Origin: Draconibacterium sp.
GTDB taxonomy: Bacteria > Bacteroidota > Bacteroidia > Bacteroidales > Prolixibacteraceae
Direction: 5' to 3'
DNA: 64,000 bases
Assembly (NCBI GenBank): GCA_035399765.1
Contig: DAOPJR010000002.1
Location: forward strand, 14,696 to 78,695
Part shown: one piece after another, positions 36,725 through 51,269 of the stretch
Numbering within the stretch: the stretch's first letter is position 1
Layout: every line of letters starts with the position of its first letter
Notes under the pieces: generated by a model
The model's database searches: none
Seen by the model: the letters and a program-made list of their open reading frames with translations, nothing else
Told to the model about the DNA's origin: nothing
Translations under genes and position numbers: made by a program

Positions 36725-38002
36725 TTAGTTCACGATAGCGGCAATAGCTGCTCCGAGCAAACTTGAGTTTTCAACTTCTACAATTTCGTAAAAACGTTGA
36801 TTTTCTCCCGACAGGAAGTTTTTCAGGTATTTTTCGAATTGCGATCTAAATCCGTGCAATTTATAGAAAGTAGTTCCCTCAATAGTCATCAGTACGGGTT
36901 TCTCATGTGTTTTTGCCTTACCGCTTTTCAGGATTACGGCAGCCAGGTTGGCAGCAACCAGTTTGGCTGCACGGTCAATCAGTCCATCGATAATTTCGGC
37001 AGCAAGAAGTTTATCCGACTGGTCGGTGAATACACCCGGCAATACACTTTTTGCATCATCAATTCCATACACATATTTGTTTACCTGTTCGGTGCTCAGT
37101 TCTTCCAGATTCTCAAAAATTTCAGGATCAGCGAAAACACCTTCTTTTGCTGCGGTTTTTAATGCAGTTGTACACAACCCCCCGAAGTAACCTCCGGCAA
37201 ACATTTTTTCAAAGGCATAACGTCCCGGGTTTTTTGTAGTGTTGTCAAAAGCAAGATCAATATCAGTACGCGGCATTTTGGCAAAAGCACCTGATTCAAT
37301 ATTGATGATTTGGTTGCCGTCCATATCCAGCCCATCGGTTTTGGTGATCTTTTTATTGGCTTCGATATAAGCGGTGTTGGTTCCTGTGCCTAAAATGTAA
37401 CCAATGTATGTATCGTAGCTTTTTACAGCCCGTGCAGCTTTTCCGGCCAGCAGAGTCGAAACAGTATCGTTCATCAGTACAATTTGTTTCTCAGGCGTTC
37501 CCATGGCAGCCAGTAGTTCGTGACCAACCATTTGTCCGATCACTTCAGGTGCTTTAATTTCTTTACTCCACTCAAGCAGTTTCCCGTCTTTACTCGGGAA
37601 AATCTCGGCAGCGTACGAAAAACAAAATCCGATTTTGTCTGAAACTGATTTATAGTCTTTGAGGTAAGTGGCAAGAGTGTTAAAAAAGGCTTCTTTCGAG
37701 AGTTCTTCTTCCACACCAGGCATTTTCCCTTTTTGAATGTTTTCAGTAATCAGTTTCAGGTTATCATCGAAATATACTTTGGCAGCCCTGAAGTTTGTGC
37801 CCCCGGCATCGACTGCTACTACAGGCTCGTTGGCTTTTACTTCACCGTCCGCTTCAATATACGTAGGCAGCATTAAAAGTGAACTTTCTTCACCTGCCAG
37901 TCCTTTTTCCATTTCGATTAAAAAAGAATTGACCACCTCTTTCATGTTAATACTGTCGGCAGTCATTTTGTGTGCTTTTAAAAAGTCAATTGCTTTGCTC
38001 AT
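36725..38002 (-). CDS. Hexokinase (eukaryote-type hexokinase family)
   Basis: MLPTY, VDAGGTNFR, GFCFSY, WSKE, NDTVSTL, ILGTGTN, INIESG, FEKMFAGGY, LLGAAIAA. Confidence 0.9.
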   Translation of the reverse strand: MSKAIDFLKAHKMTADSINMKEVVNSFLIEMEKGLAGEESSLLMLPTYIEADGEVKANEPVVAVDAGGTNFRAAKVYFDDNLKLITENIQKGKMPGVEEELSKEAFFNTLATYLKDYKSVSDKIGFCFSYAAEIFPSKDGKLLEWSKEIKAPEVIGQMVGHELLAAMGTPEKQIVLMNDTVSTLLAGKAARAVKSYDTYIGYILGTGTNTAYIEANKKITKTDGLDMDGNQIINIESGAFAKMPRTDIDLAFDNTTKNPGRYAFEKMFAGGYFGGLCTTALKTAAKEGVFADPEIFENLEELSTEQVNKYVYGIDDAKSVLPGVFTDQSDKLLAAEIIDGLIDRAAKLVAANLAAVILKSGKAKTHEKPVLMTIEGTTFYKLHGFRSQFEKYLKNFLSGENQRFYEIVEVENSSLLGAAIAAIVN

Positions 38003-41687: not shown

Positions 41688-42878
41688 ATGAAAACCAAAA
41701 TTTTAATAGGAGTACTGGCCGTTTTATTTGCTCTGGTCTCCTGCGAAAAAGACAATTTTGCTGAAAAAGATGATCTTGTTCCCACCGAAAAATCTGTCAT
41801 CATTGGTGAAGGAAAGGTAGTTTCGGAAGTGATTCACAGTCCGGCACTGGAGGACAACTTGCTGGGTTTATCTGCCGATCGAAAAGTAAATGTTTATCTT
41901 CCGAAGAGCTATGAAAATTGCCCTGGAAAGCATTATCCGGTTATTTACTTTTTGCACGGAATGCCAGCCTGGAGCGACATGCTGATGGAAGCCGTTCCTT
42001 TTGGGATATTCCAGCAAATGGCACAGCTTGCAGCAGGTGTTGATTTCCCCGCAGAAGGATTTTTACCATGGCTGAATAACCTAATAGATGATGAAGGAAT
42101 GCGCGAAGTAATAATTGTAATGCCGGACGCAAGTACCTTGTTTGGCCCTTCGATGTATGTGAACAATTCTGTAATTGGAAATTTTGAAGATTACATTGTT
42201 GAAGATGTTGTTGCGTTTGTTGACAGCCACTACCGAACCATTCCGCATTTTAACTGGCGTGCTATTTCAGGCCAGTGTGCCGGAGGATACGGCGCGATGA
42301 GTATTGCCATGAAACATCCCAAAGTTTTTCGATATGTTGGAGCACTCTCACCAGCGCATTTCCCCGAACAAACCTGGATGGTAATAGCCCAGTACATGCT
42401 GGCAGAAGACCAAATTTGGTTTGATAATTGGGGAGTACCCGCCGGACCAACTCTTTATTCTCCTTACAGTCCGTTTAAATTCGCAAATTGTTCGGCATAC
42501 ATGCTTGGACAAAACTGGTTACCCAATCTGGGTAATCCGCCGTATTTCTGCGATTTAACTTTTGTTATGGTAGATGGTGTGCCAGTGATTAATCCTGAAT
42601 TAATGACTAAAGTTGATGCGCAGAATCTTCCTGCATTATCGCAGCAATATGAAAAAGGCCTGCGTCAGCTCAAAACTGTTTATTTCGACTGTGGCGAAAA
42701 CGATGAACTTGGAATGTATCAGCCAAATGTAATGTTGAATGAGCAGCTCAATTCCATGCATATCAAACATCAATTTGAGACCTATTCAAATCCGGGAACA
42801 CATATCAGTAATCTATATGAAAGACTTGGGAAGGTTTGGGTATTGCTTTCAAATAACTTTCCCGAATGCGATGAATAA
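41688..42878 (+). CDS. Esterase-family alpha/beta hydrolase lipoprotein with Cys at the nucleophile elbow
   Basis: LVSC lipobox, VYLPKSY, YPVIYFLHG, IVMPD, RAISGQCAGGYGA, DCGENDE, GTH. Confidence 0.82.
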   Translation: MKTKILIGVLAVLFALVSCEKDNFAEKDDLVPTEKSVIIGEGKVVSEVIHSPALEDNLLGLSADRKVNVYLPKSYENCPGKHYPVIYFLHGMPAWSDMLMEAVPFGIFQQMAQLAAGVDFPAEGFLPWLNNLIDDEGMREVIIVMPDASTLFGPSMYVNNSVIGNFEDYIVEDVVAFVDSHYRTIPHFNWRAISGQCAGGYGAMSIAMKHPKVFRYVGALSPAHFPEQTWMVIAQYMLAEDQIWFDNWGVPAGPTLYSPYSPFKFANCSAYMLGQNWLPNLGNPPYFCDLTFVMVDGVPVINPELMTKVDAQNLPALSQQYEKGLRQLKTVYFDCGENDELGMYQPNVMLNEQLNSMHIKHQFETYSNPGTHISNLYERLGKVWVLLSNNFPECDE

Positions 42879-42905: not shown

Positions 42906-42943
42906 ATAAGAACGGGAAAGCAGATCTGCTTTCCCGTTCTTAT
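42906..42943. terminator. Perfect 38-bp palindrome, probable terminator
   Basis: ATAAGAACGGGAAAGCAGA|TCTGCTTTCCCGTTCTTAT, 27 nt after the esterase stop. Confidence 0.7.
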
Positions 42944-43075: not shown

Positions 43076-45964
43076 GTGAAAATAATTTCATCTGTTTTAT
43101 TGGTTTTACTATCGTTTCAGTTTGTTCAGGCTCAGGTGATTGAAAAGTCTGAGATAAAAAGCAAAGTGGAGGCGTATAAAAAAGATGCAAAAGGGCCGTA
43201 CCAGCAAATTATGTGGTTTTGCCCCGATGGATCGAAAGTACCTCCCCGTGAGCGTTGCCCAGAGCCGGGAGGTGTGCAGCGAGCTACATACAAATTATGG
43301 GTGGAAAATCTGGCAAAAAGCAATCACATTTTTCTGGGTCAAATTCTGGCGGCTACTGATTATGCTCAATTTCTGGATGCTGAAAACCAATATTCACGGG
43401 CTAAACAATATCAGATTGAAAATTATCTGGAAGGAATTGATAATGGCTGGATTCAGCAAAAGGCAAAATTCTACCGGGGTGCTTTTCAGGATGAGGATGA
43501 AAACGCTTGGGGCGAAAAATTTCTGAAGTGGACATTGGAAGAAGAAAGTCTTGATTTATCCGATTTTTTCCTATTGCGGCAGTGGTTTAAAAATATTCCT
43601 CACAAAGCAGAGACTGCCAACATTCGGAAAGTGCGGGTGCTCTCACTTGAAATAGCTGACAGTATTCCGTCTTTTATGAACATTCGGGTTAAAATCCATG
43701 GCCAGCCAGAAGCTTCGGATATTGATGCAGTAAAAGGGTTCAAACAGAAAAATGCCGGAAAAATTTCATCAGCTAACGCGGCAAAACTGGATGAGTTGAT
43801 TACTGAAATGCAACGCATTTATACTCCTGTCGAATGGACTTCACTAGGAAGCTTTGCCTCGAACAAATCATTAAGACCCGATGAAAGAAATTTGATACAA
43901 GGATGGGTAAGCGAAATTAATGCGTTGCCTGAAGTTGGTCAGAAAATTGAACGGGCAGCTGCAATGCTTCTTGAAACAAGAGAAATAGTTCTGGCGTTTG
44001 GACCGAAAGATAAATATGTATTGCTTGATTTTTCTGTTAAAACGGAAGAAATGATCTTCAGGGAACTTCCGAATTGGAAACCTGTTGACCTTTCCGATAT
44101 CCTTCGAAAAAACTATGTGCTCTCGATGGCTGCCGCCGGTGCAGGTTATATTGAAATGTGGGAATGGGAAACCATTGCACCATTACTAAAACCTTTTTCT
44201 GAAACTCAACTTTCGCTTGGTGAACTTACCGAATGCTTAAATACAGCACGTAGTGTAGTTGAATGGAGTACCGGTATGATTCGGGCCAACTATGGAAAGG
44301 AAATTACGCTTTTCGAAGGGTTCGAACCTTTGACCAGTGGTTTTGCAGATGATTTGATTCGCTCGTCAGTTTTATTACAGTTAGGACAGAGTGTGGGTGA
44401 GCTTGGTGCCTTTTTATCTGCTCGGTCCTCAGGAGCTAATCAGGTTTTCGACCTGGCAAATCAGGGGTATTTTCGTGGCCTTAATTCCGGTTTTGCCAAA
44501 GGGGTACTGGTGGTAACCGATAATCCGGAAGAAATTGAAGTATCCTCCGATAAAATATATGTATTTAATCACCCACCGTCAGATTTAAAACCGGTGGCAG
44601 GAATTGCTACTGTTTCAGAAGGAAATATGGTGTCACATGTTCAGTTACTGGCACGAAATCTTGGGATTCCAAATGCTGTGTTATCGATGCAAAACATGAG
44701 TGACCTTATAAAATATGAAGGCAGGGAAGTTTTTTATGCAGTAACTCCTAACGGAAATGTGACGATGAAACTGGCTGAAAACATGAATGACAGTGAAAAG
44801 AAACTGTTTGAAGTGAAGAAACGGGAAGAGCGAAAAATCCGGGTAGGAACCGAGAAACTTGATTTGGAGCAAACCACTGTCCTCAATCTTCGTGATGTGG
44901 ATGCCAAAAGTTCGGGAAAACTTTGTGGCCCGAAGGCTGCAAACCTGGGGCAACTCAAACGCATGTTTCCTGATTACGTGGTAGAGGGACTCGTGATACC
45001 GTTTGGTATATTCAGACAACACATGGATCAGTCAATGCCCGGGCAAAACGGAACATACTGGGATTTTCTAAATAAAACGTTTGCTGAAGCTGGTGAAATG
45101 GAAAAGGCTGGAGCAGAAAAAGCCGATATGGATGTGTTTGTACTGAAACAATTGGAAACGCTTCGAAATGCCATTCTTGAAATGAAATTTCTGCCGGGTT
45201 TTGAAGCCGACCTGAGATCGGGATTTGTAAATGTGCTTGGTAAGGAGATGGGAGATCTGCCTGTATTTTTGCGGAGTGACACAAACATGGAGGATCTCAA
45301 GGATTTTACGGGTGCTGGTCTGAATCTAACGCTCTTCAACGTAGTGGATGTAGATAAAATATTGAAAGGTATTAAACAGGTGTGGGCTTCGCCGTATTCA
45401 GAGCGTAGTTTTCGCTGGAGGCAGAGTTTTCTGCTAAATCCTGAAAATGTGTATCCATCCATTTTGGTTATTCCAAGCGTGAATGTGGATTATTCGGGAG
45501 TGCTAATTACGAAGGGGGTTAGTAATGGAAATGCAGATGATTTAACCATTGCATTTAGCCGGGGAGCCGGTGGCGCAGTAGACGGGCAGGCAGCTGAATC
45601 GTATCTGCTTGAAGCAAACGGAACCAATCGTTTACTTTCTCCTGCACGCGAACCCTCCTACAATACGCTGCCCTTAACAGGAGGAACAGGAAAAGCATTT
45701 GCTACTTTTGAATCTCCTATTTTGAGAGAAGAAAACCTAGCAAAAGTACGTGAGTTCAGTAAACAACTTCAGCAGAAAATGGAAGAAACTCAAAGTATGG
45801 AAGGTCCTTTTGATGTAGAACTCGGTTTCCTTCAGAATAGACTTTGGCTGTTCCAGGTACGTCCTTTTGTGGAAAATAAAAATGCAGCCGGGGCAGATTA
45901 TCTTAAATCAATTTCGGTTAAACCCGATGAGAAGAAAATGATTTCACTTTCAGAAAAATTGTAA
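43076..45964 (+). CDS. Exported PEP-synthase/PPDK-superfamily dikinase (unknown N-domain, phospho-His domain, C-terminal ATP-grasp)
   Basis: Signal peptide MKIISSVLLVLLSFQFVQA (GTG start); GNMVSHVQLLARNLGIP (His521); GPKAANLG (~618), FLRSDTNMEDLKDFTGAGL (~733), VWAS, SGVLIT, DVELG...LFQVRP. Confidence 0.82.
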   Translation: MKIISSVLLVLLSFQFVQAQVIEKSEIKSKVEAYKKDAKGPYQQIMWFCPDGSKVPPRERCPEPGGVQRATYKLWVENLAKSNHIFLGQILAATDYAQFLDAENQYSRAKQYQIENYLEGIDNGWIQQKAKFYRGAFQDEDENAWGEKFLKWTLEEESLDLSDFFLLRQWFKNIPHKAETANIRKVRVLSLEIADSIPSFMNIRVKIHGQPEASDIDAVKGFKQKNAGKISSANAAKLDELITEMQRIYTPVEWTSLGSFASNKSLRPDERNLIQGWVSEINALPEVGQKIERAAAMLLETREIVLAFGPKDKYVLLDFSVKTEEMIFRELPNWKPVDLSDILRKNYVLSMAAAGAGYIEMWEWETIAPLLKPFSETQLSLGELTECLNTARSVVEWSTGMIRANYGKEITLFEGFEPLTSGFADDLIRSSVLLQLGQSVGELGAFLSARSSGANQVFDLANQGYFRGLNSGFAKGVLVVTDNPEEIEVSSDKIYVFNHPPSDLKPVAGIATVSEGNMVSHVQLLARNLGIPNAVLSMQNMSDLIKYEGREVFYAVTPNGNVTMKLAENMNDSEKKLFEVKKREERKIRVGTEKLDLEQTTVLNLRDVDAKSSGKLCGPKAANLGQLKRMFPDYVVEGLVIPFGIFRQHMDQSMPGQNGTYWDFLNKTFAEAGEMEKAGAEKADMDVFVLKQLETLRNAILEMKFLPGFEADLRSGFVNVLGKEMGDLPVFLRSDTNMEDLKDFTGAGLNLTLFNVVDVDKILKGIKQVWASPYSERSFRWRQSFLLNPENVYPSILVIPSVNVDYSGVLITKGVSNGNADDLTIAFSRGAGGAVDGQAAESYLLEANGTNRLLSPAREPSYNTLPLTGGTGKAFATFESPILREENLAKVREFSKQLQQKMEETQSMEGPFDVELGFLQNRLWLFQVRPFVENKNAAGADYLKSISVKPDEKKMISLSEKL

Positions 45965-45965
45965 T

Positions 45966-47222
45966 ATGAAGACTTCCCTAAAAATAGTACTTGCAGCGAT
46001 TTTACTAATCCTGGCAGACTTTGCTTCAGCTTACCCAATTGATGGGTATGCACTTACGGGAATCCGGCGTTTGTTACGTTTGCAAATGATCCTGAATGGT
46101 GAAATCAAGGACACCAAGCCTATCGAAGGGGCGCAAAAAACGCTGGCTGATATCCATCTACAGTTAATGAATTTAAAAGGAGATAGCCTTGTTACGTTGC
46201 CTAAAACCGATCCGGTTCTTCAGAAAAAACTAGGTTCTCTTTTCCCCAATCTGGATGAAAGTTATTCGGTTACCTTACTCGATATTACTCCAGGAAAACC
46301 AATTCGTTATGCTACTCGTCAGGAGACACGTGGTTTTCAGCCTGGAAGTGTTGGGAAGCTGGCCGTTGTTGCCGCATTGTTTACTGAATTGCAACGTATT
46401 TATCCCAACTCGTTTGAAAAGCGCCAGCAACTGCTCAAAAATAAATCGGTTCGTGCTGGTCGCTGGGCGATGACCGATGAACACACCGTCCCTTTTTTCG
46501 ATCCCGAAACAAAAAAACTGGTGAAACGAACAGTGAAGGAAGATGATGTTTTTACGATCTACGAATGGGTAGATCATATGCTTTCGGTTAGTAACAACGG
46601 TGCGGCAAGTGTGGTGTGGCGGGAAGCCATTCTGATGCGTCACTTTGGTAAAGATTATCCGGCCTTGAATGAAGAACAGGCCATTCAATTTTTTAAAACA
46701 TTTCCAAAAGATTCGTTACGTCGATTGGCCAACCTGGTCGTAAATGAACCTCTGCAGGAATTAGGAATCACCAAAGAAGAATGGCGACTGGGAAGTATGT
46801 TTACTCAGGGAGCCAAGTCTTTTATCCCGGGAGAAGGAGGTAGTATTGGCTGTCCGCAGGGATTGATGAAATACTTGATTGCATTGGAAAGTGGCAAAAT
46901 TGTGGATGTAAAATCGAGCCTCGAAATAAAACGTTTGTTGTATATGACGGACCGGAGAATTCGGTATGCCACTTCACCCCGACTGACAAAAGCTGCAGTT
47001 TACTTCAAGTCGGGGAGTTTGTACAAATGCAAAAAAGAAGAAGGTTTCGAGTGCAAAAAATACATGGGCAACGTGGAAAATTACATGAACTCGGTGGCAA
47101 TTGTCGAGCATCCTGACGGAACGGTTTATTTGGTTGCACTGATGTCGAACGTGTTGAAAAAGAATTCCAACATCGATCACCAAACCCTGGCGACCTATAT
47201 CGATGATGTTATCAGGAAATAA
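45966..47222 (+). CDS. Exported serine hydrolase, class A beta-lactamase/PBP fold
   Basis: Signal peptide (FASA-Y); GSVGK (SxxK), SNN (SxN), FKSGS (KSG); starts 1 nt after the dikinase stop. Confidence 0.8.
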   Translation: MKTSLKIVLAAILLILADFASAYPIDGYALTGIRRLLRLQMILNGEIKDTKPIEGAQKTLADIHLQLMNLKGDSLVTLPKTDPVLQKKLGSLFPNLDESYSVTLLDITPGKPIRYATRQETRGFQPGSVGKLAVVAALFTELQRIYPNSFEKRQQLLKNKSVRAGRWAMTDEHTVPFFDPETKKLVKRTVKEDDVFTIYEWVDHMLSVSNNGAASVVWREAILMRHFGKDYPALNEEQAIQFFKTFPKDSLRRLANLVVNEPLQELGITKEEWRLGSMFTQGAKSFIPGEGGSIGCPQGLMKYLIALESGKIVDVKSSLEIKRLLYMTDRRIRYATSPRLTKAAVYFKSGSLYKCKKEEGFECKKYMGNVENYMNSVAIVEHPDGTVYLVALMSNVLKKNSNIDHQTLATYIDDVIRK

Positions 47223-47224
47223 AT

Positions 47225-50071
47225 TCAGACGGAAGTAATCGCTTCATATGCATGGTTGGCAAAATCCCGGACCTTCTGGTTTGGATTATTCCTGTATCTT
47301 TCAACCAACTGAAGGTAAATTTTGTCTTTCATTTGTATGATCAGGTAGAGTACAGCCAGTTTTATTTTGATGTCATTTCCACCCAACAGTTTCGAATAAC
47401 AGGTAAGTTCATCAGGGACATCGATATTAAGATTTTTAAGAGCCTCTTCAGTGAGCGAATCCAAAAGCGTTGTTTCAAGAATTGGAATGACCACTTTCTT
47501 TAACCTTGTGTCAAGTAGGTTATCTAGAAATTCGATGCTGCTAATACGCGTTTCGTTTTTATTACTTTGATAACTTTTAAATGCCGAACTGATATCTTCG
47601 GGGGGATATTTGAGCTCTAAAAGCTGAAAAATCCGCTCCAACCCTCCATCAAGTCGACGCTCCAATAAATCGATTAGACTTTTTCTGGCATCGCTTAACC
47701 CGGGGTTTTCACCAGCATCTTCAAACCTGGATTCTACATACAATATAGACAAGGTGTCCTGAATTACTCGGGCTTCATCCAGTATCCGGTTGATAATGGC
47801 TTTCTTTTCGAAATGTAGAAACGGGAATTTTACTTTCAAATGACTAAGTGAAATCAGTGCTTTATTTCTTAATACGACATCTTCTGAGTCGAGAAGTCCA
47901 AACAAAAAACTAACTGATCGTTGTGAATCGATGTTCTCAACAATTCCCGGAATCTTTCGATGGATTTCAATTTTCGATGTATCATCCAATAAGTTTTCAA
48001 GGAAAGGAATAATTTCAACGCCGTATTGTGCCAGCGCTAACTGTGTATTTTCAGTATATTCAGGATTTTCAAGCAATAAAAAGAGATGGTCTATAAACTC
48101 GGAAGCCATGGTCAGTCCAGCTGCCCGAATGGCGGTTTTTCTGATTTCGGAATTTTGATTCAACAAACCCTGCTCAACAAATGAAAAGTAGCCGGGCATG
48201 TTTCCTTTCCCGATGGTTTCCAAAATTATTTTGGTTTCATATTCGATCTTTTCGGGATCGTTTTCCAGTTTTAATGCTTCAATTCTTTTTGTAACAAACT
48301 GGCGCAACTCGTATTGTTTTTTTAGTTCGGGATTATCACGTAATTCACCGGCAAGACTTAATAAAGCTGCTCCACTCACCTTGTTGTCAGTGTCAGTCAT
48401 AAATTGCTGCATCAATTCCACCCTATTTTCAACAGGTTGCTGCAGAAGAAATTCAAAGGCAGAAATTCTCACCTCCTGCGAAGGATCCATGATCATTGTT
48501 TGCACTTTATCCATAATATCCTGGTTTCGGTAGAGAGAAAGGTTTTGAAGTGCAGAGGCCCGTACTTCGCCACTTTCATTATTAAGCAAATTCAGAATAA
48601 AAGGGAAAAGCCTGTCGTCAGGTTTTTCACGGGTTTTCAACAAAACCCACATTCTCTGGTTGTTCGTTCCCTGTTCCAGGACATTGATCAGACCATTTAA
48701 AACTGACTCTGTGGCAATATTTATTTCCTTGCTTTCTTTTCCTTGGGAATTTTGTTTCAGTTTATTCTGAAAAGATAGGATGTATTCGCGACGAATCTTC
48801 AAGGCAAAATAAAACCAAATGCCAAGAATAACAATGATCATCAGACTGATAAATGGAGTGGAAAGCTGAAAAGCATTTACAAGCAAAATAAGGATGATTC
48901 CGCCAATTCCCGTTGCCACACTGTCGACAAAAACATCGATAAAGGTTTTTGTTTTGTTTTTTATTGAAAGTGGAATCGGGAGCGCAAGCAGCTCGGTGGC
49001 CGATTTATTAATCGATTGTTTTAGGCTGCCATCTGCCATTTTTATAATGATTGCTGCAAATAGCGAAGGTACAAACAGCACCAGCAGTGCGCCGATTAAA
49101 ATACCGGCAGGTAGAAAGAAAAGCGAGGTGCCAACGCCAAAAACACCAACTACACGGCGGGTCAGAAAAAGCTGGATTAACAAGGAGATGAGATTGAAGT
49201 TGGAAAACCAGAATCCAAAAAAGGCGGTCAGTTCGTCCGGGTCACTGATTTTCATGGAAGCAAGAGCATTAAACTGGTAATCCACCAGTTTAGCAACAAT
49301 TACACTCATGCCAATAATCCCGGCAAGATAGGTCAGATGTTTCGATTTCCTGATTAAACGAAACGGACTTTCCACAATTTCATTCAATTTATTTTTACTT
49401 CTGAATGGATTCTTTTTCCCGCTAAGATTGTCGCGCCAAATCGATTTTGTGATCGGAATGCAAAGCCAGAGTAAAAATGCACTGACGAAAAGCAGATTCT
49501 CAGAACCGATGGACGGTGCTAGAATGGATGTTAAATAACCTCCGAAAATGCCACCTGCAATGGCTCCTGATCCAATGAAGCCAAACAGACGTTTGGCTTC
49601 GCGAATATTAAAAACAAGGTTGGCCAGAATCCAGAATTGTGAAGCAGATAATACGGCAAACAGTGCAACCCAGATATAAAAAAAATAGATAACCCAGCTT
49701 ACAAGAAAATGAAATCCAAGTAAGACACCAAAAACAATTAAAATTCCAACCGAAATGGCAATAGTCCGTCTCATTAGAAGGTAAAATGAAATCCGGGTCA
49801 ATATCCTTGAATAATAATAGGAAAGGATCATGGCTGCCACGGCAACAAGAACAAAAGCCAGAGGCAGGCTTTCTACCCCGAAGCGCGAAAGAAACATGCC
49901 TGTAACAGATGGTTTTACAATCAGAAGTGTTGAAATAATCAGGAAAATATTTAGCTGCATCAGAAAGGCGCGTTTATATTCTCCTTCCCGAAGATCAAAG
50001 AATTTCAACAGTAAAAATTTCACTGGTTTGCCCAACAGGGCCGTGTTCCAACCCAACGGATTCGTTTCCAT
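47225..50071 (-). CDS. TLC/NTT (Npt1/Npt2-like) nucleotide translocase fused to HEAT repeats
   Basis: About 12 TM in the first ~430 aa with SQFWILANLVFNIREAKRLFGFIGSGAIAGG and ELLALPIP...KTKTFIDVFV signatures; HEAT-like repeats (EVRASAL, EVRISAF, EIRKTAI, VLRNKAL). Confidence 0.85.
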   Translation of the reverse strand: METNPLGWNTALLGKPVKFLLLKFFDLREGEYKRAFLMQLNIFLIISTLLIVKPSVTGMFLSRFGVESLPLAFVLVAVAAMILSYYYSRILTRISFYLLMRRTIAISVGILIVFGVLLGFHFLVSWVIYFFYIWVALFAVLSASQFWILANLVFNIREAKRLFGFIGSGAIAGGIFGGYLTSILAPSIGSENLLFVSAFLLWLCIPITKSIWRDNLSGKKNPFRSKNKLNEIVESPFRLIRKSKHLTYLAGIIGMSVIVAKLVDYQFNALASMKISDPDELTAFFGFWFSNFNLISLLIQLFLTRRVVGVFGVGTSLFFLPAGILIGALLVLFVPSLFAAIIIKMADGSLKQSINKSATELLALPIPLSIKNKTKTFIDVFVDSVATGIGGIILILLVNAFQLSTPFISLMIIVILGIWFYFALKIRREYILSFQNKLKQNSQGKESKEINIATESVLNGLINVLEQGTNNQRMWVLLKTREKPDDRLFPFILNLLNNESGEVRASALQNLSLYRNQDIMDKVQTMIMDPSQEVRISAFEFLLQQPVENRVELMQQFMTDTDNKVSGAALLSLAGELRDNPELKKQYELRQFVTKRIEALKLENDPEKIEYETKIILETIGKGNMPGYFSFVEQGLLNQNSEIRKTAIRAAGLTMASEFIDHLFLLLENPEYTENTQLALAQYGVEIIPFLENLLDDTSKIEIHRKIPGIVENIDSQRSVSFLFGLLDSEDVVLRNKALISLSHLKVKFPFLHFEKKAIINRILDEARVIQDTLSILYVESRFEDAGENPGLSDARKSLIDLLERRLDGGLERIFQLLELKYPPEDISSAFKSYQSNKNETRISSIEFLDNLLDTRLKKVVIPILETTLLDSLTEEALKNLNIDVPDELTCYSKLLGGNDIKIKLAVLYLIIQMKDKIYLQLVERYRNNPNQKVRDFANHAYEAITSV

Positions 50072-50107
50072 GAATTATACAAAGGAAGTTGAGTGGAAAA
50101 TTAGGAA

Positions 50108-51040
50108 TTAATTTGGAGCGATTAAAGTATTATCGACCTTTAAAGCCAGATCGCGTAAAATTTTTTCTCCGTCAGAAGCTTCGGTAAGTGCTACAAGAAT
50201 GTATTTACGTTTGGGGCCCCACACCAAAATAGAATCAGCATGATAATCGTGCCATGTTCCGGATTTTCGAAATAGCTTGGCTTTTGGAGCTACTTTTTCA
50301 ATCGAGTTCACAAATTTGTGGTGCAACTCAGGATCCTGCATAATGTCCAGCATTTGGGCTGATCGCTCCGGGCTTACCAATTGTCCATTAACGAGCAAGT
50401 AGTAGAATCGACATACCTGGTTTACCGTGGCGGCGTGACTAATGCCTTTAATTGGTTCAGGATATCTTTTCCCTGTTTTAGCATATCGTTTGCCAACCCA
50501 CAATCCTCCTCCGTGTTCTTCATCGTAAAGCAGGTACTCGGGATCGGTCAATACTTTCTCTATTTTTTCAAAACCCAATAGATCGATGAGTCGGGTTGCA
50601 GCCTCATTATCAGAGCGGGCAATCATTTTTCGCATATCATCGTGTATGGCAGAAGTCTCTTTAATTTCACCCTTGTCAAGGGCATCTTCCATTGCTAATA
50701 AAATTGCAATCTTGGGAAGGCTGGCTGCATACATAATATCGTCGCCATTAACTCGTGCAAATTTGATATTACTGGTATCATTCAATACTACCAATCCAAC
50801 TGCCATTTTCTTTTCTGCCACAAGTGATTTCCATCGTGGTTGTTTGTTTATAATTTGTTCCAGAGCATTCTGTAACTCCTCATTCTTATAGGTATAAAGT
50901 GGTTTTACAGCTTCCTGCTCTATGGTAAAAGGCAAACTCATATCCATATCGTCAGACAGCCCGGAAGATAAGTTGTTCGTACCTGAATTGCAACTTAGCA
51001 AAACTGTAACAATCAGATAAATAAATAAACCCTTCATCAT
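50108..51040 (-). CDS. Lipoprotein serine hydrolase, class A beta-lactamase-like (Beta-lactamase2)
   Basis: LLSC lipobox (start probably 51040; ORF open to 51112); YAASLPK (SxxK), RSDNEAA (SDN), RKSGTW (KSG), HADS. Confidence 0.82.
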   Translation of the reverse strand: MMKGLFIYLIVTVLLSCNSGTNNLSSGLSDDMDMSLPFTIEQEAVKPLYTYKNEELQNALEQIINKQPRWKSLVAEKKMAVGLVVLNDTSNIKFARVNGDDIMYAASLPKIAILLAMEDALDKGEIKETSAIHDDMRKMIARSDNEAATRLIDLLGFEKIEKVLTDPEYLLYDEEHGGGLWVGKRYAKTGKRYPEPIKGISHAATVNQVCRFYYLLVNGQLVSPERSAQMLDIMQDPELHHKFVNSIEKVAPKAKLFRKSGTWHDYHADSILVWGPKRKYILVALTEASDGEKILRDLALKVDNTLIAPN

Positions 51041-51269
51041 TTTAATCATAAAAAAGTAAGCGAAAGTAGCAAAAAGTAAATACCAAAGTTCGTCTTTAGT
51101 TTTCATTAACAAAAAAAACTCGAGTACAAAGAGTGTTCTTTAAATGGCTGATATTAAAAATATTATGTTCCCAATTTGTTGAAGTAATTGGATTTTTATT
51201 TCACCAATTATACTTCTGACAGTCATTATTGAATTCTCTTTGTATTTTTATAAAAACTTGAATGTAGTT

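Follow-up and report, generated by a model that had tools for sequence, protein, structure and literature searches.

Among the closest described counterparts of the enzyme at the centre of this study are the alpha-glucan, water dikinases and phosphoglucan, water dikinases (GWD/PWD) of plants and algae. They consist of a substrate-binding N-terminal part, a phosphohistidine domain and a C-terminal PPDK_N ATP-grasp domain, and they act in the plastid stroma, which is equivalent to the cytoplasm and into which a plastid nucleotide transporter (NTT) feeds ATP. Rifampin phosphotransferase (RPH) and the PEP synthase/PPDK group share the ATP-grasp nucleotide-binding motifs and the swivel histidine, but carry the ATP-grasp domain at their front end. 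Characterised NTTs are mainly nucleotide importers or exchangers. Among penicillin-binding-type enzymes, PBP-A (Thermosynechococcus Tll2115) lacks the ExxLN general base of class A beta-lactamases. The periplasm is usually thought to hold no ATP.

Earlier work has questioned this view. A hypothesis paper from 2014 cites the phosphorylation of arginine-ornithine binding protein and the adenylation of streptomycin as processes that rely on periplasmic ATP, and reasons that ATP or ADP has to cross the inner membrane in some prokaryotes; its passages cited here name no transporter gene or dedicated module (PMC4289276). In addition, fusions of a TLC/NTT domain followed by HEAT repeats have been described as a monophyletic group that is common among free-living bacteria and whose function is unknown, and the parts of that report cited here mention no tie to exported dikinase or PBP-like genes (Major, Embley and Williams 2017; PMC5381601).

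Here, we analysed a locus within a 64,000-nt stretch of DNA from Draconibacterium sp. (the window), in which a candidate carrier of this type is tied, physically and in its phyletic distribution, to an exported ATP-grasp enzyme. No published description of this module was found in the literature. We put the probability at about one half that the four genes form a single envelope module in which the carrier supplies nucleotide to the exported dikinase. The preliminary description had proposed a periplasmic ATP-fuelled system; the co-localisation of the genes and the conserved signal peptide now speak for it, while export of ATP by the carrier is advanced slightly more tentatively than the module itself.

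Organization and distribution of the locus

The open reading frames matched exactly, at coordinates fixed beforehand, the layout that had been claimed: two convergent gene pairs, the dikinase with BL1 and BL2 with the carrier (Table 1). The dikinase and BL1 are separated by 1 nt, the BL2 stop and the carrier start by 36 nt, and the convergent stops of BL1 and the carrier by 2 nt. The ATG of BL2 at 51040 yields MMKGLF...LLSC, a lipobox, and the frame can be extended to a TTG at 51112. Upstream of the dikinase, 33 nt past an esterase gene, a palindrome with a T-rich tail likely represents a terminator; it was read by eye and was not listed by a consensus scan of the sequence. If real, it would make dikinase and BL1 a separate transcription unit. 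Each of the four genes is covered in part by contigs of a wastewater RNA library with identities of 95% or higher (99% or higher for 8 of 9); these may stem from contaminating DNA and are weak support for expression.

Table 1. Positions of genes, domains and sequence elements in the window.
Feature	Position	Strand	Remarks
Perfect 28-nt palindrome, then T-rich tail	42911..42938	+	read directly from sequence
Dikinase (P0001)	43076..45964	+	962 aa, GTG start; ORF, PPDK_N
Sec signal peptide, dikinase residues 1-21	43076..43138	+	predicted cleavage between VQA and Q
N-domain, dikinase residues 22-480	43139..44515	+	mostly helical (AF2 model)
His521 codon, predicted phospho-carrier histidine	44636..44638	+	motif EGN-x-VSH-VQLLARNLGIPN
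ATP-grasp nucleotide-binding domain, dikinase residues ~600-941	44873..45898	+	PPDK_N 616-941
BL1 (P0002)	45966..47222	+	418 aa; ORF, Beta-lactamase2
NTT-HEAT carrier (P0003)	47225..50071	-	948 aa; ORF, HEAT_2 + TLC
HEAT-repeat domain, carrier residues 446-948	47228-48736	-	cytoplasmic by topology
NTT/TLC-type membrane domain, carrier residues 1-445	48737-50071	-	12 helices
BL2 (P0004, numbered from internal ATG)	50108..51040	-	lipoprotein; ORF, Beta-lactamase2
BL2 lipobox Cys codon	50990-50992	-	LLSC

Co-localisation of homologues had been set beforehand as a test of the proposed system. Gene order and orientation were identical in all 64 related Bacteroidota loci holding the four genes, and no flanking gene beyond these four was conserved at related loci; the arrangement is therefore far beyond chance. 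In a sample of 200 Bacteroidota genomes, each with a completeness of at least 90%, the occurrence of the dikinase coincided fully with that of BL1, BL2 and the carrier orthologue: all were found in the same 3 genomes and none in the remaining 197, the only three positives coming from three families. Linkage was also retained in distant relatives with 25-32% identity and a GC content of 38-65%, and the module thus appears old enough to span these lineages. In four of these loci (L083, L095, L097 and L098), dikinase, BL1, BL2 and a TLC carrier lie within a few kb in shuffled order and orientation. The carriers of the distant modules lack the HEAT repeats present in the fusions described previously (PMC5381601), and the stand-alone ones match TLC directly. 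Reduced versions also occur: in L086, L090 and L096 the dikinase is kept beside one BL protein, which in L090 is BL2. Counting against the proposed module, L090 has no TLC gene within 8 kb, L011 and L071 have no carrier within 10 kb, and L088 has a stand-alone divergent paralogue. A mobile-element context was not seen in the flanks of the module.

The dikinase is predicted to be exported

The dikinase consists of a signal peptide, a helical N-domain, a phosphohistidine swivel and a C-terminal ATP-grasp domain. The search yielded 2241 homologues at E<=1e-3, the best 120 of which were full length. Export signals had been proposed for the dikinase and both SxxK proteins, and hydrophobic, signal-peptide-like N-termini were found in 78/81 dikinase, 75/75 BL1 and 61/61 BL2 homologues. 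In all 79 dikinases, the hydrophobic region is followed by a small residue and Q, and the predicted cleavage leaves Gln22 at the mature N-terminus, in agreement with the Bacteroidetes Q-rule (PMC5837995). As the conserved residues Lys35, Gly40 and Pro41 precede the next Met, the signal belongs to the dikinase protein. A near-invariant cysteine pair (Cys49 and Cys61, each in 77/80 divergent representatives) further supports export. An alternative would be that the four genes are chance neighbours, or that gene calling has wrongly given an export signal to an ordinary cytoplasmic dikinase. Nothing was found in its favour except the textbook assumption of an ATP-free periplasm; it is contradicted by the uniform layout of the 64 loci, by linkage that survives shuffling of gene order in distant lineages, and by the conserved residues and Q-rule sites just described, and it can hardly be credited.

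The N-domain is presumed to be the substrate-binding part. Its AF2 model (pLDDT 88.8) found no match in a PDB fold search, nor did a Pfam search of this domain return any family. The model superposed on that of a plant GWD-like cluster carrying PPDK_N and GWD1_pHisD (TM 0.57 over 341 residues). The domain order is likewise that of GWD/PWD, and in both cases an NTT-family carrier stands alongside the enzyme. Unlike GWD/PWD, however, the module dikinase shows neither a starch-binding module of the CBM45 or CBM20 type nor a match to PF22973, is predicted to be exported to the periplasm, and is paired with two PBP-like enzymes.

His521 is shared by all of the close homologues compared (18/18) and by 74/80 of the divergent representatives; the PEP-utilizers match spanning it (residues 504-544) was weak, with 17-20 bits compared to the Pfam cut-off of 23.1. 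The Pfam match to PPDK_N was clear (E 9.5e-24), and Lys620, Arg733, Glu915, Gln927 and Arg929 are present and kept in 75-77 of 80 divergent representatives. By sequence, the closest solved ATP-binding domain is that of 5hv6/5hv1, deposited as phosphoenolpyruvate synthase and which we take to be the Listeria RPH; the two align with matching RS..ED and E...Q.RP motifs. The NCBIfam rifamycin-phosphotransferase model was hit with E 1.2e-13, but the dikinase scores far under every equivalog cut-off of the RPH, PEP synthase/PPDK kind. It also differs from these enzymes in its signal peptide and reversed domain order, and a domain search did not find a PEP/pyruvate TIM-barrel domain. With a complete ATP-grasp site and no such domain, the enzyme would still need a nucleoside triphosphate outside the cytoplasm.

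BL1 and BL2 resemble PBP-A

Both partner proteins matched Beta-lactamase2 (BL1, E 2.2e-7; BL2, E 1.2e-21) and contain the SxxK, SxN and KSG motifs of PBP-A and class A beta-lactamases. In BL1 these are S128-x-x-K131, S209-x-N211 and K348-S-G350, at least 97% conserved among 72 sequences; in BL2, S131-x-x-K134, S167-D-N169 and K283-S-G285 (P0004 numbering), at least 97% conserved among 65 sequences. Given this conservation, BL1 and BL2 are probably active enzymes and not mere binders. The mature N-terminus of BL1 opens with a conserved YP-x-DG motif, and its Cys355/Cys363 pair is invariant, again in favour of export. Compared by Foldseek, its AF2 model (pLDDT 90.4) shares its fold with PBP-A and the class A beta-lactamases (E values of 7e-11 to 2.6e-10; TM by target 0.73), although identity is only 12-17% and BL1 is longer by about 140 residues. 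BL2 is predicted to be an exported lipoprotein of the class-A-beta-lactamase/PBP-A-type fold; the nearest solved sequence was PBP-A Tll2115, a weak match (E 0.086). Some BL2 homologues bear a lipobox and the others a Q-rule SPI site, and one distant BL2 has a twin-arginine-like signal. The ExxLN motif was absent from both proteins (in BL1, looked for between SxN and KSG), and they reached 25 bits with the class A beta-lactamase model compared to a cut-off of 200, which places them closer to PBP-A than to beta-lactamase.

These likenesses raise the possibility of periplasmic drug inactivation, in which an antibiotic kinase similar to RPH would act together with two beta-lactamase-like hydrolases against envelope-targeting compounds. 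The affinity of the ATP-grasp domain to 5hv6/5hv1 and to the rifamycin-phosphotransferase model, the superposition of BL1 on class A beta-lactamases and the patchy occurrence in 3/200 genomes of three families fit this idea. It is nevertheless very unlikely, as the dikinase domain order is not that of RPH, BL1 and BL2 are nearer to PBP-A, the flanks lack a mobile-element context, and the module appears old. This possibility bears solely on what the substrate is, and would not conflict with a supply of ATP through the carrier.

The carrier and the supply of nucleotide

The carrier has the same architecture as the NTT-HEAT fusions introduced above, but is co-inherited with the dikinase and PBP-like genes. 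Its HEAT_2 match is clear (E 2.3e-14), while the TLC score of 21.2 bits is at the cut-off of 21, MFS_1 is almost level with TLC (E 1.5e-4 versus 3.5e-4), and the NCBIfam NTP/NDP exchanger model gave 30 bits compared to a cut-off of 387. These scores would suit a divergent MFS-type permease that resembles TLC and moves a non-nucleotide solute such as a cell-wall or glycan fragment, the link to ATP being coincidental. We regard this as quite unlikely. The best solved match of the carrier is the plastid NTT1 (9j3j, E 4.5e-8), it has the FW..AN...EAKR and K.K..IDV motifs in common with the NTT family, the stand-alone carriers of distant modules match TLC directly, and NTT-HEAT fusions were placed within the NTT family in the cited part of the earlier phylogenetic work (PMC5381601). 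The carrier, the sole TLC match in its genome, is thus an NTT/TLC relative and a candidate carrier of adenine nucleotides. The hydropathy profile shows helices in a 6+6 pattern, with a central loop rich in K/R and a run of basic residues past helix 12; the HEAT domain, being cytoplasmic, cannot serve as a docking site for the exported proteins.

In a tree of membrane domains, which has long branches and no canonical NTT outgroup, the carriers of distant-lineage modules grouped with those of the Bacteroidota modules (support 90/92), separate from NTT-HEAT-cNMP paralogues; two non-module paralogues (G103) were nested within the module group. That the four genes stay together across distant bacteria suggests, without proving it, that ATP is delivered to the periplasm in these organisms. 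Alternatively, the module may be real but its carrier directed inward, taking up the enzyme product, AMP/ADP or a nucleotide-like compound, with the phosphate donor of the dikinase coming from elsewhere; AmpG, which imports muropeptides, would be a parallel. The known preference of NTTs for import or exchange agrees with such a role, the linkage data provide a functional tie without direction, and NTT-HEAT paralogues beside unrelated exported enzymes (G103, G145 and G101) fit several periplasmic pathways. However, the dikinase would still require an external nucleoside triphosphate, and the flanks hold no other conserved candidate supplier. An inward carrier is therefore unlikely, if still credible.

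If nucleotide supply by the carrier is assumed, the dikinase would leave the cytoplasm via Sec, be cut ahead of Gln22 and use a nucleoside triphosphate in the periplasm, most likely ATP as in water dikinases. The C-terminal ATP-grasp domain would bind ATP and transfer the beta-phosphate to His521 on the swivel domain, from which it may pass to a candidate substrate held by the helical N-domain, with release of AMP and phosphate. The 12-helix carrier would bring the nucleotide across the inner membrane, probably in exchange for spent nucleotide, gated or regulated by its cytoplasmic HEAT domain; we know of no NTT reported to carry AMP, the expected product. A point against this route is that ATP delivered to the periplasm could be lost across the outer membrane. 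BL1 and BL2, as PBP-A-like acyl-serine enzymes, may act on the substrate of the dikinase or in its pathway, candidates being a peptide of the cell wall, one linked to a glycan, or a compound resembling a beta-lactam.

Among the NTT-HEAT paralogues, those in G103 adjoin an exported Metallophos lipoprotein and an Omp85-like protein, and those in G145 and G101 adjoin an exported GlcNAc-2-epimerase-like barrel.

Conserved arrangement of the four genes

The four reading frames of the module, encoding a dikinase, two exported class-A-beta-lactamase/PBP-A-fold serine enzymes (BL1 and BL2) and an NTT-HEAT carrier, were recovered at the positions and with the spacing reported in the preliminary description, with the stops of the two converging gene pairs lying 2 nt apart. 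To determine how far this arrangement is shared, loci were scanned in one genome per species. This yielded 571 dikinase relatives, from which the 80 best loci were retained. All 64 four-gene loci among these displayed the order and orientation of the window, and chance adjacency of the four genes was therefore rejected. Loci without a module member mostly end within or just past the module, and L011 and L071 are true exceptions. None of the flanking genes of the window recurred in the kept loci, and no fifth gene was common to them. The tail-to-tail junction of BL1 and the carrier is conserved as well: 31 of the 64 loci have stops that overlap, by 4-23 nt, and in 46 the stops are at most 15 nt apart. 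A terminator would not fit into this space, so that the BL1 and carrier transcripts may overlap as antisense.

Positions of the module genes and of further features in the window and in related loci (L-numbers)
Feature	Location	Strand	Remarks
Hexokinase-domain protein	window 36725-38002		425 aa
Esterase-family (PF00756) protein	window 41688-42878		directly upstream of the module
Perfect 28-nt palindrome with T-rich tail	window 42911-42938		3' of the esterase gene
Dikinase (P0001)	window 43076-45964	+	962 aa
BL1 (P0002)	window 45966-47222	+	begins 1 base past the dikinase stop
BL1/carrier junction	window 47222-47225		tail-to-tail
NTT-HEAT carrier (P0003)	window 47225-50071	-	
BL2 (P0004)	window 50108-51040	-	lipoprotein; stop 36 nt before the carrier start
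Distant TLC carrier	L098:6272-7915		547 aa; C-terminal He_PIG (Ig-like) domain
Distant BL2	L098:12236-13150		twin-arginine-like signal TRRSFL
Dikinase paralogue (P0165)	L088:8001-10865		954 aa
NTT-HEAT paralogue, genome G103	L093:6940-13830 (including neighbouring genes)		
NTT-HEAT paralogue, genome G103	L094:938-10933 (including neighbouring genes)		
Shorter NTT-HEAT paralogue, genome G145	L100:3788-9641 (including neighbouring genes)		about 765 aa
Shorter NTT-HEAT paralogue, genome G101	L102:744-6662 (including neighbouring genes)		about 765 aa

Presence and absence were determined in a sample of 200 Bacteroidota genomes with a completeness of 90% or more. All four members (dikinase, BL1, BL2 and orthologous carrier) occurred in the same three genomes, which belong to three families. 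The genes are adjacent in two of these and split between two contigs in the third. No module member was found in the other 197 genomes of the sample; weaker NTT-HEAT paralogues occurred in eight further genomes.

The partnership is also kept, in other arrangements, among relatives at 25-32% identity on contigs with a GC content of 38 to 65%. Locus L095 harbors dikinase, BL1, BL2 and a 427-aa TLC carrier, whereas in L098 the TLC gene is divergent from a dikinase-BL1 pair and BL2 is convergent. In L097, a TLC-BL2 pair is located 7 kb from dikinase-BL1, and in L083 the dikinase faces BL2-TLC, with a gene for an MFS/cNMP-binding protein upstream. L086 and L096 have dikinase-BL1, and L090 has the dikinase and a long BL2 with no TLC gene within 8 kb. 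The carriers of the distant modules lack HEAT repeats, indicating that the conserved partner is the NTT core. Linkage that survives rearrangement between such distant lineages is a classical sign of shared function. Thus, the predicted co-localisation holds both in the 64 Bacteroidota loci and in rearranged distant relatives, and the four genes are co-inherited. The module is present in cultured members of Maribacter, Arenibacter, Flagellimonas, Sunxiuqinia and Aquimarina, and by protein in Labilibaculum species, which makes experiments feasible. The carrier and BL2 of L098 each have a feature of their own, as listed in the table.

Source genome and transcription

The source genome is a 3.58-Mb draft of 84% completeness, and the closest relatives of the dikinase, among the matches listed, belong to Prolixibacteraceae and Marinilabiliales-type Bacteroidota. 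The palindrome with its T-rich tail following the esterase gene makes dikinase-BL1 look like a separate transcription unit; the esterase gene itself is not conserved beside the module. A scan whose model is not built for Bacteroidota promoters returned 23 promoter-like sites compared to 18.8 expected from shuffled sequence, and 14 terminator-like sites (9.0 expected); both counts are near expectation and were not used as evidence. In one wastewater RNA library, contigs at least 95% identical (eight of nine at least 99%) covered parts of all four genes, which hints only weakly at transcription. Contigs of that run (X8) are missing from the esterase flank and from some stretches of every gene, and these gaps are uninformative. 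RNA run X24 gave no contigs, and a DNA run from the same wastewater study spans the whole stretch. Metagenomes from activated sludge, wastewater and a hot-spring setting contain near-identical DNA; the top one is possibly the source sample, and no habitat is claimed. Further upstream, the window encodes a protein with the domains Hexokinase_1 (E 2.8e-24) and Hexokinase_2 (E 4.3e-43), both of a eukaryote type that is uncommon among bacteria.

Export signals of the dikinase and the serine enzymes

The dikinase starts with a short hydrophobic segment followed by VQA|Q. A comparable segment is present in 78 of 81 Bacteroidota homologues and in 72 of 80 divergent representatives, and four of the eight exceptions among the latter are truncated gene calls. 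All 79 Bacteroidota homologues having such a segment continue with a small residue and Gln, as in the Bacteroidetes Q-rule for signal-peptidase-I substrates (PMC5837995). A mis-called start codon was rejected as an explanation, since the conserved residues Lys35, Gly40 and Pro41 are located upstream of the next methionine. In addition, two cysteines twelve residues apart, each kept in 77 of the 80 representatives, would fit a disulfide in an oxidising compartment. A signal peptide was found in 75 of 75 BL1 homologues, and a lipobox (LLSC in the window) or a Q-rule site in 61 of 61 BL2 homologues. The export signals ascribed earlier to the dikinase and both SxxK proteins are thus present and conserved, and we are highly confident that the module and its export are real.

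Domain structure of the dikinase

The C-terminal region of the dikinase (residues 616-941) matches the ATP-grasp family PPDK_N (PF01326; E 9.5e-24, 84.7 bits, cut-off 27). A PEP-utilizers match (PF00391) at residues 504-544 around His521 scores 17.2-20.2 bits and is below the cut-off of 23.1; however, His521 occupies the expected motif position and is invariant in 18 of 18 close homologues. In an alignment of 80 full-length cluster representatives, reaching down to 25% identity with the N-domain of the query, His521 is kept in 74 and Lys620, Arg733, Glu915, Gln927 and Arg929 in 75-77 each, suggesting a catalytically intact family rather than a decayed domain. A few representatives lack His521 or ATP-site residues.

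The Pfam placements point to the order substrate part, phosphohistidine domain and ATP-grasp. In PEP synthase, PPDK and rifampin phosphotransferase (RPH) the order is reversed, with an N-terminal ATP-grasp, and the C-terminal PEP/pyruvate-binding TIM barrel of PEP synthase and PPDK has no Pfam match in the dikinase. The equivalog models for these two enzymes reach only 71-83 bits compared to cut-offs of 598-883. The nearest architecture is that of the plant (phospho)glucan, water dikinases GWD and PWD, in which the substrate part is likewise followed by the pHis domain and a C-terminal ATP-grasp. However, the CBM45/CBM20 starch-binding modules and GWD1_pHisD (PF22973) of these enzymes had no match in the dikinase. 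By sequence, the ATP-grasp is nearest to PEP synthases and the RPH-type ATP-binding domain. In an alignment with the ATP-binding domain solved as 5hv6/5hv1, the motifs RS..ED and E...Q.RP of the two coincide; this structure was deposited as phosphoenolpyruvate synthase and is presumably the Listeria RPH. With regard to the substrate, a main alternative is that the genes form a periplasmic drug-inactivation module, which would fit the RPH-type relationship of the ATP-grasp but not the domain order.

Residues 22-480 of the dikinase matched no Pfam family, and residues 430-620 matched PEP-utilizers only, even at E up to 10. The predicted model of the N-domain is mostly helical (pLDDT 88.8). Foldseek returned nothing from the PDB at E<=0.001, and among 48,161 chains compared by VIA-align the highest Z, 8.9, fell on generic helical bundles covering 80-100 residues. 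The N-domain has no convincing solved counterpart, which does not make the fold new. Its best predicted-structure match outside the family is a plant-rich cluster carrying PPDK_N and the GWD1 phosphohistidine domain (TM 0.57 by query, 341 residues, rmsd 4.6). As a comparison of two predicted models, this is suggestive but not conclusive of kinship with GWD. Proteins with this N-domain (456 clusters, E<=1e-3) are nearly all about 960-1000 aa long. Complex prediction of the N-domain with mature BL1 scored 0.16 compared to a mark of 0.32, which speaks neither for nor against binding.

Locus L088 encodes a divergent stand-alone dikinase paralogue, P0165, for which no match to PPDK_N is recorded. 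Its neighbours include neither BL nor TLC genes; it is surrounded by genes for type IX secretion-tail (Por_Secre_tail) proteins.

BL1 and BL2 resemble PBP-A

The SxxK, SxN and KSG motifs are kept at 97% or more in both BL1 (72 sequences) and BL2 (65 sequences), and the pair Cys355/Cys363 is invariant in BL1. The predicted BL1 model (pLDDT 90.4) superposes on class A beta-lactamases and the Thermosynechococcus PBP-A with E of about 1e-10 and a TM by target of about 0.73, at 12-17% sequence identity. However, both proteins lack ExxLN, the general-base motif, in the stretch from SxN to KSG, and the curated bla_class_A model gave 25.3 bits for BL2, far below its cut-off of 200, and no hit for BL1, so that an identity as class A beta-lactamases was rejected. 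Sequence similarity to the PBP-A Tll2115 is marginal (E 0.086), while the fold and the three motifs fit this type. BL1 and BL2 are therefore best described as putative PBP-A-like acyl-serine enzymes. The predicted mature N-terminus of BL1 (residues 23-36) displays YP-x-DG followed by G-I-x-R-L (32-36) in nearly all of the 72 sequences, among them relatives of 33-42% identity, suggesting that a free N-terminus may be functionally important.

Carrier and possible ATP supply to the periplasm

Hydropathy predicts 6+6 helices for the carrier; the central loop is rich in K/R, and helix 12 is followed by a basic stretch. This pattern places the N-terminus and the 500-residue HEAT domain in the cytoplasm, where the HEAT repeats could not serve the exported proteins as a docking site. 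Matches to HEAT_2 (PF13646, E 2.3e-14) and HEAT (PF02985, E 9.2e-11) are located C-terminal of the membrane domain, making the protein an NTT-HEAT fusion by definition. Major et al. (2017; PMC5381601) catalogued such fusions as a monophyletic group of unknown function that is widespread among free-living bacteria.

The TLC family (PF03219, TC 2.A.12) is only just reached, with 21.2 bits at a cut-off of 21 and 22.9 bits in the genome search, which found no second TLC gene in the 84% complete source genome. A main alternative to nucleotide transport is that the carrier moves a non-nucleotide solute. The exchanger model TIGR00769 scored 30 bits compared to a cut-off of 387; among solved structures, the chloroplast ADP,ATP carrier NTT1 matches best (9j3j, E 4.5e-8), and the blocks FW..AN...EAKR and K.K..IDV are common to the carrier and a second solved NTT. 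In a membrane-domain tree with long branches and no outgroup, distant module carriers group with those of Bacteroidota (90/92), apart from NTT-HEAT-cNMP paralogues, and two non-module paralogues fall inside the module group.

Three products thus carry conserved predicted export signals, the dikinase retains its ATP site and histidine and the serine enzymes their motifs, and the remaining product is a carrier of the NTT family whose accessory domain is predicted to lie inside the cell. On these grounds the dikinase would work in the periplasm and would need a nucleoside triphosphate there, which the carrier would provide. Water-dikinase chemistry would convert ATP, substrate and water to AMP, phospho-substrate and phosphate, and the PBP-like enzymes would act on the dikinase's substrate. 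The preliminary description had likewise proposed that the carrier exports ATP to power an extracytoplasmic dikinase; this interpretation is partly supported, as both of its genomic predictions hold. Supply of ATP, or another NTP, by the carrier falls just short of an even chance, and any particular substrate of the dikinase is improbable. The other main alternative is that the carrier works inward, retrieving product or spent nucleotide. To our knowledge, the NTTs characterised so far act mainly by import or exchange, and none is reported to carry AMP, which argues against ATP export, as do the few dikinase loci without a carrier nearby and the ATP that could be lost through the outer membrane.

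We assign a probability of about 40% to the reading that some free-living double-membraned bacteria export ATP to the periplasm by a dedicated, regulated NTT-family carrier, thereby powering the phosphorylation of an envelope substrate by an exported GWD-like dikinase that has two PBP-like enzymes as partners. As a further step, this bacterial pairing of dikinase and NTT could be evolutionarily related to the plastid pairing of GWD and NTT. Textbooks hold that the periplasm lacks ATP, and this assumption shapes views of envelope biogenesis, cell-wall synthesis and periplasmic quality control. With an exported ATP-grasp enzyme paired with a carrier of the ATP/ADP-translocase family, the question of periplasmic ATP becomes testable via named genes. 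If true, the rule of an ATP-free periplasm would have a genetically encoded exception, and the widespread uncharacterised NTT-HEAT and free-living NTT carriers would have a first function. The module would represent a new kind of system and points to unknown envelope phosphorylation chemistry tied to penicillin-binding-type enzymes. Literature searches on exported dikinases, periplasmic ATP export and NTT-HEAT function turned up neither a description of the module nor a paper linking its parts. The nearest published account is a hypothesis paper of 2014 (PMC4289276), which takes up two reports of periplasmic reactions that depend on ATP and makes the case that ATP or ADP must be transported in some prokaryotes; its accessible part names no transporter gene.

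Other NTT-HEAT paralogues

Genome G103 encodes two NTT-HEAT paralogues without a dikinase, 30% identical to the carrier of the window. The paralogue in L093 heads a same-strand run encoding an Omp85-like protein, a 568-aa lipoprotein and a Metallophos phosphoesterase lipoprotein. In L094, the paralogue is followed by a gene for a Metallophos lipoprotein, and the opposite strand encodes a related lipoprotein of 565 aa at a distance of about 5.6 kb. This looks like a further envelope context for the carrier family. A general rule that NTT-HEAT genes lie beside those for exported phospho-enzymes was rejected, as these two paralogues fit and others have unrelated or cytoplasmic neighbours. The shorter paralogue is flanked in genomes G145 and G101 by genes for an exported GlcNAc-2-epimerase/GH127-like barrel protein and a 535-aa protein of no family.
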